Of a stretch of 64,000 nt of DNA, positions 13,031 through 30,353 are shown piece by piece. Below the pieces are notes generated by a model. The model saw nothing but the letters and a program-made list of their open reading frames with translations, did not search any database and was not told the DNA's origin. The position numbers and the translations under genes were made by a program. This DNA comes from Deltaproteobacteria bacterium (GTDB taxonomy: Bacteria > UBA10199 > SBBF01), in NCBI GenBank assembly GCA_016183175.1, contig JACPFC010000016.1, forward strand, positions 11,932-75,931, in the 5' to 3' direction. Numbering within the stretch: the stretch's first letter is position 1; each line of letters opens with the position of its first letter.

Positions 13031-13046
13031 TGGCATAGAAAATGCA
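13031..13046 (+). promoter_or_regulatory. Candidate sigma54 (-24/-12) promoter upstream of the sigma-factor gene
   Basis: TGGCAT-agaaa-ATGCA vs consensus TGGCAC-N5-TTGCW; 34 bp upstream of ATG 13080. Confidence 0.45.
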
Positions 13047-13079
13047 GATAATTTAAGCGAGGGGAGTGTTCTATTTCTA

Positions 13080-13883
13080 ATGGAAGTGAGTCTTCAGCAA
13101 AAAGAAGAACCGATGTTGAAAAAAGATGAAGGGAACGCCTTGCCCGAACGCGACCGGATCATCGAGCAGTATCTCCCTTATGCCACCGCCATCGCCAACC
13201 GGGTGGCCCGTTCGCTCTCCGGCGATGTCGACTACGACGACATCCTCTGCAACGCCCGCCTGGGCCTGCTTGAGGCGGCGCGCCGGTTTGACGCCCGCTT
13301 CAACGTCGATTTCAAAACCTTCGCCTTCTACCGCATCAAGGGGGCGATCTACGACGGTCTGCGAAAGACCGGCTGGATGCCCCGCTCCCTCTACGCCAAA
13401 ATCAAGTTCGATCAGGCGGCCGCCGAATACATGATGTCGGCCACCGAAAAAATCATCGACCGCGCCGACCGCGTCCGGTCCGAAATCGACACCATCTACG
13501 AAACGGTCAACAGCCTTGCCTCCATGTACGTCATGTCGCTGGACAGCATGGAGGAATTCGAGGTGGAGGACAAGGCGGCCAAGCGGGACATCGAGCACAA
13601 GGCGGAGTTCCAGAAGATCAAGGAAAAGATGCGCGACGCCATTGAGACCCTTCCCGACAAGGAGCGCAAGCTGGTTAAAATGTATTATTTCCAGAACAAG
13701 ACGCTGGAAGAGATCGGCGAAAAAATGAGCCTTTCCAAGTCGTGGACGTCGCGCCTCCATGCCCGGTCGCTGGAATTGCTGTTTAAAAAATTAACCCAGA
13801 TCAACGCGAAGGATCAGTCGTTCGACGGGCCTGCGGGGAGAGAGGTCCCCTCCCGCGAGTCGGCGGAATTGAAGGAGGAATAA
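13080..13883 (+). CDS. Sigma-70 family sigma factor, FliA/sigma-28-like (regions 2, 3, 4)
   Basis: Region 2 (DYDDILCNARLGLLEAARRFDARFNVDFKTFAFYRIKGAIYDGLRK) and region 4 HTH (LVKMYYFQNKTLEEIGEKMSLSKSWTSRLHARSLELL); size 267 aa. Confidence 0.7.
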   Translation: MEVSLQQKEEPMLKKDEGNALPERDRIIEQYLPYATAIANRVARSLSGDVDYDDILCNARLGLLEAARRFDARFNVDFKTFAFYRIKGAIYDGLRKTGWMPRSLYAKIKFDQAAAEYMMSATEKIIDRADRVRSEIDTIYETVNSLASMYVMSLDSMEEFEVEDKAAKRDIEHKAEFQKIKEKMRDAIETLPDKERKLVKMYYFQNKTLEEIGEKMSLSKSWTSRLHARSLELLFKKLTQINAKDQSFDGPAGREVPSRESAELKEE

Positions 13884-28296: not shown

Positions 28297-28307
28297 ACTC
28301 CTCCTGT

Positions 28308-30353
28308 TTATCTTTGTAGCGGCGCCATGATCTCCGTATAATTCTTGCTTGTTTGGACGCTTTTTGTCCAGCTTTTATACCCCGGCATGGAGACGAGAAT
28401 GGTATGTGTCTGATCCTTTCTCAAGTTCCGGACCACAATGGGGGTCACCCCCGATTTTTGTCCATCCACCACCACCGAGGCGCCGCGGGGGCTTGAATCG
28501 ATCCGGATGCTGGCCAGCGGCCCAAAGGTGTCGCCCGTCTCGCGGCCGGAAGGGGAGAGCGTCGGTGTTGCCGGCAGGGCCGGTGTTGGTGTGGGTGTTT
28601 TTTTTGATGTTGGTGTTGTCTTTGTTGTTGTTGTTGTCTTTGTTGTTGTTGGAACGGGAGGTTCCGTTCGAGGTTCCGTTTTGATTTCCGGTTTGACGAT
28701 GAGGTCGATGGGAGCCGGCTTTATTGCCTCGATAGCAGGGGCCTCCACAGGAGTTGAGACAACCTCGCCCGGTTTCTTCAAGACCGCTTCCAGTGTTGCC
28801 GAGACCGACAGATAAGTCTCGCCGGAAAAATCGGCCTCTTTTTCCCACGGTTTGAATCCCTCCTTTTCAAGGCGGAGTTGGTGGGTTTGATCCAGCTCCA
28901 AGTCGCCGATTGTGAATGGGGTCTCCTCGCCCGTGTCCTTGCCGTCGAGAATAATGCGGGCCCCCGAAGGTTCTGAAGTCACCTCGATTTCGCCGACAAC
29001 CGGCGGAGGGGAGGGTTCGGGTTCAGGTTCGGGCGTCCGCGGGAAAAAATACCAGACAAGACCTCCGGCAACGGCCAGCGCCGTCAGAAGATACGGCCAA
29101 ATCCGCTTTTTCCTTTTTATCGATTTGATCAGCTCCCTGGTGGTGATCACCGGTTCACCCGCGGGATGTTTCAGGTCGGCCGGCCGGGCCCAGTCTTCCG
29201 GTTTGGTCGTTGGGGCCAGAATTTCCTCATCCGGGCCCCCCAGGGCGGGTCGCCCCCCCAGGGCGGGTCGCCCCCCCAGGGCGGGTCGCCCCCCCAGGCC
29301 GGATCGGCCCCCTTCCGACATTTCCCGGTGGACGATGCTTTCCTCTTTGATGCCGGCGGGCATGACCGGCCGGGTATCGCCTGCGGGCGGTGCCGGTTCC
29401 CCAAGTTTTTTTCGTTTTGCCTTCAACTCGGGGGCGAACCATTTTTTAATCAGGTTGGCCAGTTGTTTGGGCGAGAAGTCGACATACTGCGAGTAGAGCG
29501 CCCGGGTCAGCGCAATTTGAAAGTCGCCCGCCGTCTGATACCGCTCCGCGGGGTTGAAGGCCAGCGCCTTGGCGACAATGGGGCCGGCTTCGGCGGAAAT
29601 TTTTTCGGAAAGCGCCGCCTCGGTGATGCGGGTGGTCTGAATGACCTTAAGCACCTCGATCTGCGTTTCCCCCGTAAAAAGCCGCTCTCCGGCGAGCATC
29701 TCGTAGAGGATGATGCCGGCGGAAAAGATGTCGGTTCGCGCGTCCACAGGCTTCCCCAGCGCCTGTTCCGAGGACATGTAGGTGACTTTGCCCTTCAGGA
29801 TGCCGGCGGTCGTGTGGGAAATGTTGAGGGCCGCCTTGGCGATGCCGAAGTCGACGATTTTTGTCTCTCCTTCGAAAGAAATAAGGATGTTTTGCGGGCT
29901 GATGTCGCGGTGGACGATGCCCAGCGGCTGGTTGTGCTCGTCGCGCCGGCTGTGGGCGTAATCGAGCCCCTTGCATATTTCGGAGGCGATATAAAGGCAG
30001 ACCGGGACGGGGATTTCTTCGTTCAGTTCCTTGCCGCGGTTCATCAGTTCGCGCAGGTTGAAGCCGTCGATGTATTCCATCGAGATGTAGTAGTCGTCCC
30101 CCATTTTTCCCAAGTCGTAGATCTGGACGATGTTGGTGTGCGAAAGGCGGACCGCCAGCTTGGCCTCGTCGGTCAACATGGAGATGAACTCCTTGTCGGC
30201 GGAGTAGTGGGGGAGGATTTTCTTGATGGCCAGCTGTTTTTCAAAGCCGTCGACGCCGAAGGTTTTGGCCTTGTAGATCTCGGCCATTCCGCCCACGGCC
30301 AGCTTGTCGGTCAAAAAATATTTTCCAAACGGTTTTGGTTCGAATGAAGACAT
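28308..30353 (-). CDS. Hanks-type Ser/Thr protein kinase with TM and two C-terminal PEGA domains
   Basis: Kinase motifs GGMAEIYKA...AIK, HRDISPQNIL, DFGIAK; TM IWPYLLTALAVAGGLVWYFF; PEGA-like SEPSGARIILDGKDTGEETP and SSPRGASVVVDGQKSGVTP. Confidence 0.85.
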   Translation of the reverse strand: MSSFEPKPFGKYFLTDKLAVGGMAEIYKAKTFGVDGFEKQLAIKKILPHYSADKEFISMLTDEAKLAVRLSHTNIVQIYDLGKMGDDYYISMEYIDGFNLRELMNRGKELNEEIPVPVCLYIASEICKGLDYAHSRRDEHNQPLGIVHRDISPQNILISFEGETKIVDFGIAKAALNISHTTAGILKGKVTYMSSEQALGKPVDARTDIFSAGIILYEMLAGERLFTGETQIEVLKVIQTTRITEAALSEKISAEAGPIVAKALAFNPAERYQTAGDFQIALTRALYSQYVDFSPKQLANLIKKWFAPELKAKRKKLGEPAPPAGDTRPVMPAGIKEESIVHREMSEGGRSGLGGRPALGGRPALGGRPALGGPDEEILAPTTKPEDWARPADLKHPAGEPVITTRELIKSIKRKKRIWPYLLTALAVAGGLVWYFFPRTPEPEPEPSPPPVVGEIEVTSEPSGARIILDGKDTGEETPFTIGDLELDQTHQLRLEKEGFKPWEKEADFSGETYLSVSATLEAVLKKPGEVVSTPVEAPAIEAIKPAPIDLIVKPEIKTEPRTEPPVPTTTKTTTTTKTTPTSKKTPTPTPALPATPTLSPSGRETGDTFGPLASIRIDSSPRGASVVVDGQKSGVTPIVVRNLRKDQTHTILVSMPGYKSWTKSVQTSKNYTEIMAPLQR
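29228..29299. repeat. 18-bp tandem repeat x4 inside the kinase gene encoding (GGRPAL)n
   Basis: cagggcgggtcgccccccc repeated; translated on the minus strand as GGRPALGGRPALGGRPALGG. Confidence 0.7.

Follow-up and report, generated by a model that had tools for sequence, protein, structure and literature searches.

The stretch of DNA analysed here (64 kb, called the window below) comes from a groundwater metagenome-assembled genome (MAG) of the Deltaproteobacteria/UBA10199 group with locus tags HYU99_. We found that a type III secretion-like gene cluster spans about positions 1400-30970 of the window, which looks flagellum-related and needle-less and has a control circuit of its own. The circuit appears to combine two sigma-54 promoters, an activator linked to a Ser/Thr kinase and a FliA-like sigma factor. 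These parts are well known singly, and their combination has not been described before: literature searches found no description of the secretion system or its regulation, no link between UBA10199 and type III secretion, and no link joining FHA domains, sigma-54 and type III secretion systems (T3SS) in Myxococcus. What sequence and conservation together support is the existence of the sigma-54 promoters and of a FliA-type promoter class, along with the gene content, the pairing of kinase and activator and a set of promoter-specific palindromes.

The window was compared with 19 syntenic loci that a scan of species-representative genomes, a set without the window's own MAG, found in MAGs labelled Deltaproteobacteria, UBA10199, Myxococcota or 'Pseudomonadota', 80 further syntenic loci from a metagenome scan and four more reached through homologues of an acidic protein of the cluster. 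These loci are related to one another, so the conservation and palindrome counts given below do not stand for independent events. One of them, L001, is a groundwater metagenome contig with the gene order of the window and proteins that are mostly 45-84% identical; its intergenic DNA is barely alignable with that of the window outside the promoter sites.

The two sigma-54 promoters are as follows.

13031-13046, + strand: P1, sigma-54 -24/-12 promoter TGGCATAGAAAATGCA, heading the sigma-factor/export-apparatus operon
23722-23737, + strand: P2, sigma-54 -24/-12 promoter TGGCATGGTGATTGCT, heading the acidic-protein/TPR operon

An earlier note on this DNA had picked out these two motifs and claimed that both are correctly spaced upstream of start codons, and both points held. 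The sites are intergenic and on the + strand, the distance from GG to GC is exactly 10 nt in both, as in TGGCAC-N5-TTGCW, and the C of the -12 element lies 35 nt before the ATG at 13080 for P1 and 51 nt before the ATG at 23787 for P2. P1 and P2 were the only matches to TGGCAYN5WTGCW in the 64 kb on both strands (0.12 expected), a pattern fitted post hoc. Because this pattern was derived from the two sites themselves, an independent scan of the whole window, both strands, was made with an approximate matrix built from the published consensus; P2 ranked first and P1 second (17.8 and 15.0 bits), ahead of a third-best site at 13.4 bits. Of 500 windows simulated with a first-order Markov model, 3.8% held a site of at least 17.8 bits and 31% a site of at least 15.0 bits. 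The matrix score alone is modest evidence, and P1 by itself would not be significant.

The orthologous loci gave a clearer result. A P1 element precedes the sigma-factor gene in 12 of the 12 loci that cover that upstream region, where it is the best site of the locus in eight, second behind P2 in three and fifth in one. A P2 element precedes the gene after fliR (the post-FliR gene) in 16 distinct loci, with 14.5-19.9 bits and rank 1 in 13 of them. In L001 the top two matrix sites were TGGCATAGAATGTGCA before the sigma-factor gene and TGGCATGCCAATTGCT before the post-FliR gene. The earlier note had named motifs no better than background hits as grounds for rejection; by score the sites go only modestly beyond chance, whereas by conservation at orthologous positions they go beyond it.

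We conclude that P1 and P2 are very probably real sigma-54 promoters. Two results weigh on the other side: two or more sites of at least 15.0 bits arose in 6% of the simulated windows, and no rpoN was found among the proteins of the 64-kb window, although the genome presumably carries one, an indirect pointer to which is the intact sigma-54-type activator encoded in the cluster. It is highly improbable that the two are chance matches to a short consensus and that the genes are transcribed from other promoters, a view that could cite the simulation frequencies and the ATGCA of P1 where TTGCW is expected, because in the loci just counted the best or second-best site recurs at the equivalent position, intergenic, on the correct strand and 35-51 nt ahead of start codons in the window, amid poorly conserved flanking DNA. 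The lesser sigma-54-like sites of the window were taken as chance, for example one of 13.4 bits at 34940, which lies inside or antisense to a methylase gene. Additional strong sites of 15.8-16.6 bits in distant loci (L048 5499, L046 11035 on the minus strand and L090 4643) lack the upstream palindrome described below; these could be chance matches or additional sigma-54 promoters that answer to a different activator.

P1 opens the following region.

12914-12928, + strand: terminator-like hairpin and T-run after the upstream gene
13080-13883, + strand: FliA/WhiG-like sigma factor of the sigma-70 family, 267 aa, with Sigma70_r2 and r4
13887-22790, + strand: p157, FliG-like, FliH/SctL, ATPase FliI/SctN, FliJ/SctO, p312, FliM-like, FliN/SctQ, FliO, FliP, FliQ and FliR

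The hairpin lies just ahead of P1 and marks it as the start of a separate transcription unit. The earlier note had sigma-54 driving a fliA-like gene; P1 does stand upstream of that gene, yet what it heads is an operon of 13 tightly packed genes (13080-22790, about 9.7 kb, with intergenic gaps of at most 96 nt) in an order common to L001 and about 15 other loci. The sigma factor is 61-70% identical across loci and its closest solved relatives are FliA and WhiG chains. It scored 136.2 bits against TIGR02479, which was still its best-scoring family; since the cut-off is 189.6, we call it FliA-like and not FliA. No FlgM-type anti-sigma partner was found in the cluster. The product of the next gene, p157 (13887-14360), had no FlgM match and its candidacy as a FlgM-like anti-sigma factor was dropped as unsupported; its homologues gave only weak SctI (E 0.015) and SctF-like matches. 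In addition, p312 (17951-18889) showed a weak match to the FliK C terminus (E 0.048) and sits where the SctP/FliK ruler gene is usual.

The cluster also carries a second promoter class. Three exact copies of the motif GCAACT-N13-19-CGATAA occur in the window (0.04 expected), and each lies directly upstream of a gene of the cluster. These, a one-mismatch variant and the genes concerned are listed here.

9943-9971, + strand: FliA-type promoter GCAACT-N17-CGATAA, before the p171-TPR-SctJ-p137-p121 operon
10071-12913, + strand: p171-TPR-SctJ-p137-p121 operon
6958-6984, + strand: FliA-type promoter GCAACT-N15-CGATAA, before the 808-aa gene
7009-9435, + strand: 808-aa protein of unknown function
1448-1475, - strand: FliA-type promoter GCAACT-N16-CGATAA, before the 437-aa TPR gene
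119-1432, - strand: gene for a 437-aa TPR protein
3695-3721, + strand: one-mismatch FliA-type variant TCAACT-N15-CGATAA, before a 70-aa open reading frame (ORF; 3749-3961)

We found that the motif is kept at orthologous positions in 12 loci, and that the element of the SctJ operon is at the same place in nine (the window, L001, L007-9, L011, L015, L016 and L023). Furthermore, at least 15 other syntenic loci lack a sigma-54 site before the post-FliR gene and have AAGCAACTT-N15-17-(C)CGATAA there instead, with the classic CGATAA -10 element. A separate promoter class for the sigma factor encoded in the cluster therefore points to a multi-tier cascade. In its simplest reading, sigma-54 would produce the FliA-like sigma factor and the export apparatus, and the FliA-like sigma factor, by recognizing GCAACT-N15-17-CGATAA promoters, would read the remaining operons. 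Lineages would then differ in whether the post-FliR operon stands under the sigma-54 tier or the FliA-type tier.

Two further observations concern this class. The product of the 70-aa ORF (MATSTGSIDPNKRQ...) resembles at its N terminus the post-FliR protein of L022 (MSTGPVDPNKP...) and may be a small secreted protein. In five loci (L009 7024-7058, L015 7148-7182, L018 3242-3276, L019 2964-2998 and L020 7030-7064) the 3' end of fliH contains a conserved FliA-type motif, GCACAACTTGACACCCAGCTGAAYGCGATAAAAA, some 40 nt ahead of the ATPase gene; it could be an internal promoter or merely conserved coding sequence, and the same position in the window does not match the FliA-type pattern.

Beyond fliR, P2 heads the acidic-protein/TPR operon; the genes there are as follows.

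23787-24659, + strand: acidic 290-aa protein, 57 D+E versus 4 K+R, a presumed secretion substrate
24677-26210, + strand: TPR protein (218 aa, chaperone-like) and 294-aa protein, in the same orientation as the acidic gene
26227-26253: strong terminator-like hairpin after the gene for the 294-aa protein
26298-27065, + strand: second TPR protein, 255 aa

The acidic protein has 22 homologues, and Pfam and NCBIfam gave no family match for it. Its AlphaFold2 model is helical and confident only for residues 1-110, and a Foldseek search of the model against the PDB returned no match with E below 3. It is 27% identical to the protein of L001 (E 1e-24); its resemblance to the proteins that take this position in loci of the FliA type, which are not acidic, is only faint. 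That it is secreted is a guess from its position beside genes for chaperone-like TPR proteins. Four loci of one clade with a sigma-54-type P2 (L043, L046, L048 and L049) encode post-FliR proteins that start with EF-hand-like loops, such as DANNDGRVSKEEF, DTNRDGSIDKAEW and DTSGDGIISQEEW, which suggests calcium binding. Between FliR and P2 the window also holds a VapBC-like module on the minus strand (22817-23420), made up of a PIN-domain toxin (136 aa, PF01850, E 7e-11) and a 70-aa upstream partner; L001, L107 and L108 are without this insert, and L006 has a different insert of small genes.

The DNA upstream of the sigma-54 promoters repeatedly contains a palindrome of the form (T)GGGG-N6-10-CCCC(A). 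This palindrome was noticed by inspecting the aligned regions and then tested with explicit controls; a naive search for shared k-mers as enhancer candidates had returned AT-rich noise only. The window holds three copies, which we regard as candidate upstream activating sequences (UAS).

12948-12967, unstranded: candidate UAS palindrome TTGGGGGTTAATCACCTCAA, 83 nt upstream of P1, separate from the hairpin at 12914-12928
23589-23607, unstranded: distal candidate UAS palindrome TTGGGGTCTTTAGTCCCAT, its GGGG core starting 131 nt upstream of P2
23624-23643, unstranded: proximal candidate UAS palindrome AAGGGGTTGCAATACCTCAA, its core starting 96 nt upstream of P2 and 35 bp from the distal one

Perfect palindromes were present in 12 of 23 sigma-54 promoter regions and in none of 40 FliA-type regions, with a background of 0.02 per 230 nt. 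With at most one mismatch the counts were 22 of 23 and 7 of 40 (background 0.35 per 230 nt). In 19 of 27 promoters a palindrome begins at -119 to -131 relative to the T of TGGCA, in five P2 regions exactly at -130, and seven promoters have a second copy 32-35 bp away. The DNA between palindrome and promoter is AT-rich and IHF-like. A palindrome that is specific to sigma-54 promoters and has enhancer-like spacing would link P1 and P2 to a common DNA-binding activator, and it agrees with the near-invariant HTH of the activator's orthologues described below.

Not everything fits this interpretation: the palindrome at P1 of the window is imperfect and lies at -83 instead of about -125, and G/C palindromes just past the ends of genes could be terminators. 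On the latter account the palindromes would be intrinsic terminators or hairpins of the repetitive extragenic palindromic (REP) kind that belong to the upstream genes, and the true enhancer would be elsewhere. We regard this as unlikely, while giving it real weight, as these are G/C-rich hairpins that often follow directly on a stop codon and several, for example in L008, L023 and L107, are followed by T-runs. The FliA-type regions serve as a control for a plain terminator explanation because many of them also directly follow FliR, and they lack perfect copies altogether. A fixed distance to the -24 element and the tandem spacing also speak against terminators, as does the window itself, where the P2 palindromes have no co-directional upstream gene and the P1 palindrome comes after a separate terminator hairpin. 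We therefore retain the palindromes as candidate enhancers.

The candidate activator is encoded in the regulator operon at the far end of the cluster.

26902-28296, - strand: enhancer-binding protein (EBP) composed of FHA, AAA+ (sigma-54 interaction) and Fis-type helix-turn-helix (HTH) domains, with the motif GSFTGA
28308-30353, - strand: Hanks-type Ser/Thr kinase (Pkinase E 3e-38) with one transmembrane segment and two periplasmic PEGA domains
30368-30973, - strand: 201-aa protein (p201) with a C-terminal transmembrane segment, the first gene of the regulator operon; the neighbouring housekeeping genes yggT-proC-yggS come next, also on the minus strand

Profile searches confirmed the FHA-domain sigma-54 EBP that the earlier note had described (FHA PF00498, E 1e-18; Sigma54_activat PF00158, E 1e-69), and the adjoining PEGA-domain Hanks kinase was likewise recovered, with a Pkinase domain and two PEGA domains. 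The EBP has the Walker A sequence GETGTGKE together with ESELFGH, DEIGE and GSFTGA (GSFTGA or GAFTGA in orthologues). Its orthologues are 63-80% identical, with an HTH and recognition helix that are near-invariant. The kinase domain is 56-72% identical across loci and contains LAIKK, HRD, DFG and SPEQ/SSEQ motifs and a Thr-rich activation loop. Wherever a locus includes the region, the kinase and EBP genes share a strand and the kinase gene comes immediately upstream, with a gap of 9-11 nt, and this strict adjacency and co-orientation suggest translational and functional coupling. Furthermore, a conserved sigma-70-like promoter, TTGAAT-N17-TAGAAT in the window (about 31008-30980) and of the form TTGAT/TTGAA-N17-TAGAAT-like in general, precedes the p201-kinase-EBP operon, for which reason the regulators look constitutively expressed.

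Some peculiarities of the window's own copy were noted. Its sigma-70-like promoter (30974-31013) lies about 6 nt from the GTG start of p201, compared with a leader of about 115 nt in L105 (7442-7635), so that this copy may be leaderless, mis-started or affected by a deletion. At the other end of the operon, the EBP gene (-) and the gene for the 255-aa TPR protein (+) overlap convergently by 164 bp (26902-27065). The EBP segment NVSKAAREAKIDRKHLRNLL is nearly invariant in nine orthologues, and the window copy diverges after ...LRNLL: it ends ...LRNLLPASPISTD, whereas every orthologue has ...LRNLLKKYEI and then an acidic tail. The window's 255-aa TPR ORF is about 40 aa longer than that of L001, and the overlap may reflect an assembly indel or a frameshift.

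From these data the EBP of the cluster is probably the activator of P1 and P2, and we infer on this basis which EBP acts there. For control of the EBP by the kinase through the FHA domain, the domain architecture and the conserved linkage leave us evenly divided. Several features detract from this picture. The HTH_8 match of the EBP, at 20.0 bits, falls under the Pfam cut-off of 22. Its FHA domain has Gly-Lys and not the canonical phosphothreonine-contacting Gly-Arg in nine of ten aligned sequences (Gly-Ile-Lys in L007), and also matches the YscD-type FHA family, which is not known to bind phosphothreonine. The catalytic loop of the kinase reads HRDISPQN, with Ser for the usual Lys, in eight of nine aligned orthologues (HRDVSPQN in L043), and the cluster contains no phosphatase gene.

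In another explanation the EBP activates P1 and P2, yet the phosphothreonine made by the adjoining kinase is not what its FHA domain reads. It might instead bind an unphosphorylated partner, such as a component of the apparatus, so that the state of assembly or secretion feeds back on transcription, and the kinase would act on other targets or on the following protein.

4656-6881, + strand: FHA-TM (transmembrane)-PEGA-TPR-PEGA protein, 741 aa, with SctD/YscD-like topology

This SctD-like, ring-like protein has a fully canonical FHA domain (GR...SRAH...SRNGT) and shares PEGA domains with the kinase, and is a plausible second or alternative kinase partner. The explanation agrees with the Gly-Lys substitution and with the EBP's FHA domain fitting the family of YscD cytoplasmic FHA domains about as well as it fits the generic one. 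We nevertheless judge it improbable, in view of the pocket motifs Ser-x-x-His and Asn-Gly-Thr, which are intact in the EBP (SRNH and STNGT), and of the invariable kinase-EBP arrangement.

A further possibility, to which we assign a small chance, is that the sigma-54 promoters are real and answer to an EBP encoded elsewhere, with the adjacent FHA-EBP serving other targets. Many such bacteria have dozens of EBPs; L020 has a second FHA-EBP, 41% identical, beside the cluster, and the extra sigma-54-like sites of L046, L048 and L090 come without the palindrome. Set against this, no locus that covers the region lacks the EBP in its cluster, its recognition helix hardly varies, and the conserved palindrome is specific to the DNA upstream of the cluster's sigma-54 promoters. 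The cluster's own EBP thus remains our preferred activator.

The circuit that we propose has three tiers, and taken as a whole we think it somewhat likelier than its opposite. In tier 0, the sigma-70-like promoter would supply p201, the membrane Hanks kinase and the FHA-AAA+-HTH EBP. An envelope signal would cause the kinase to autophosphorylate, or to phosphorylate a partner, on threonine; the FHA domain of the EBP would read the phosphothreonine, upon which the AAA+ ring would be released or assembled, the sign of this control being one that we infer. In tier 1, the EBP would bind the GGGG-N6-10-CCCC palindromes, many of them tandem, at a distance of about 70-150 bp upstream, and use ATP to remodel sigma-54 RNA polymerase at the two -24/-12 promoters. 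The outputs would be the FliA-like sigma factor, ATPase complex, C-ring and FliOPQR gate from P1, and the acidic-protein/TPR operon from P2. In tier 2, the FliA-like sigma factor would read GCAACT(T)-N15-17-(C)CGATAA before the SctJ ring operon, the 808-aa gene, the TPR gene and the small ORF.

As to the apparatus itself, the genes seen encode SctJ, N, L, O, Q (FliM/N), R, S and T, together with FliG- and FliO-like proteins, which are flagellar traits. The 64-kb window has neither flhA/sctV nor flhB/sctU, and no secretin, rod, hook or filament genes either, beside an otherwise complete FliGHIJMNOPQR/SctJ/SctD-like set; these genes must lie elsewhere or be absent. Outside the cluster, a small defence island at 32858-36863, with genes for a MamI-like restriction endonuclease, an HTH-fused N6 DNA methylase of 788 aa and an AbiEii toxin, separates the yggS side of the cluster from an oligopeptide ABC transporter. 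An operon of PrkA Ser kinase, DUF444 (YeaH-like) and SpoVR genes at 50466-55316 is a widespread stress/starvation module unrelated to the cascade. The neighbouring ORFs of 184 and 241 aa at 60309-61637 correspond to the first and second halves of a single amine-oxidase/FAD family profile and are probably a frameshifted or split gene.

The signal input of FHA-type sigma-54 activators has been mostly a matter of prediction since their discovery in Myxococcus, and the present locus offers a compact, conserved and testable module with a kinase, an FHA-EBP, two promoters, a candidate enhancer and, downstream, a sigma factor that has a promoter class to itself, all of them legible in the sequence. 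The locus also documents a logic of regulation for a type III secretion system that is early-branching and flagellum-like, in uncultivated bacteria, and the same operon, placed under sigma-54 in some related genomes and under a FliA-like sigma factor in others, offers a natural contrast for work on the rewiring of secretion and flagellar hierarchies. Joining all of these elements, we put forward with reserve, and with rather less conviction than the circuit itself, the reading that the UBA10199/'Deltaproteobacteria' MAG lineage carries an undescribed flagellum-to-injectisome intermediate. An envelope-sensing Hanks kinase acting through FHA on a sigma-54 activator would be its master switch, over a hierarchy running from sigma-70 through sigma-54 to a sigma-28-like factor; the palindrome would be the first sequence-defined enhancer of an FHA-EBP, and the putative substrate operon would have been rewired repeatedly between sigma-54 and sigma-28-type control.

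The circuit is a variation on the known sigma-54 to sigma-28 and HrpRS-HrpL cascades. In the flagellar hierarchies of Vibrio, Pseudomonas and Campylobacter, FlrA, FleQ or FlgR act with sigma-54 and are followed by FliA/sigma-28. In those systems, an AAA+ EBP and sigma-54 turn on type III export genes and fliA, and a FliA-type sigma factor uses promoters with CGATAA-type -10 elements, as would be the case here. The closest solved structures to the AAA+ core of the present EBP are NifA, ZraR, FleQ, NtrC and FlrA/FlrC. The input differs, being an FHA domain beside a Hanks kinase and not a receiver or FleQ domain. In addition, the -35 element of the FliA-type promoters is GCAACTT in place of the flagellar TAAAGTTT, no FlgM-like anti-sigma factor was found, and SctJ- and SctD-like ring proteins are present where no rod, hook, filament or motor genes were seen.

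The layout of the palindromes resembles that of NtrC at glnAp2, where two dyad-symmetric sites about three helical turns apart lie about 100-150 bp upstream of a -24/-12 promoter; the tandem arrangement with AT-rich, IHF-like DNA in between is common to both. The half-site is TGGGG/CCCCA here as opposed to TGCACC/GGTGCA for NtrC, the input domain is another one, and the present EBP sites are candidates. For the protein, the nearest precedent is in Myxococcus xanthus, whose FHA-domain EBPs Jelsbak, Givskov and Kaiser are said to have described in fruiting-body development (PNAS, 2005). Those EBPs reportedly have the same build of FHA, sigma-54 AAA+ and HTH domains and the same proposed link to Ser/Thr kinases. 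In contrast to them, the present EBP appears hard-wired with its kinase into a secretion cluster, and its candidate promoters and enhancers can be read in the sequence.

As an apparatus, the cluster resembles the early-branching non-flagellar 'Myxo'-type T3SS (Abby & Rocha 2012, PMC3459982) and the needleless T3SS* of M. xanthus (PMC12075869), in a comparison of gene content. As far as the 64 kb show, it shares with them a type III export core, an SctJ-like ring, the lack of a secretin and of an obvious needle, and an occurrence in Deltaproteobacteria-like lineages, and differs in keeping FliG-, FliM- and FliO-like genes and in having no sctU/sctV (flhB/flhA). In Chlamydia, which is non-motile, sigma-54 with CtcC and sigma-28 control late genes (PMC7482065, PMC12282069), so that sigma-54 and a FliA-type sigma factor are likewise used for genes related to type III secretion; CtcC, however, is a two-component response regulator, and neither a hierarchy from sigma-54 to sigma-28 nor an FHA input has been described there. 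In Pseudomonas syringae, HrpR/HrpS and sigma-54 drive hrpL, the gene for an alternative sigma factor that activates T3SS genes (PMC3105312), and the present circuit would follow the same logic, with sigma-54 and an EBP activating the gene for a secondary sigma factor of type III secretion genes. HrpL is an extracytoplasmic function (ECF) sigma factor whereas the present one is FliA/WhiG-like, HrpRS lack a sensory domain, and here sigma-54 would also directly drive the export apparatus and a putative substrate operon.

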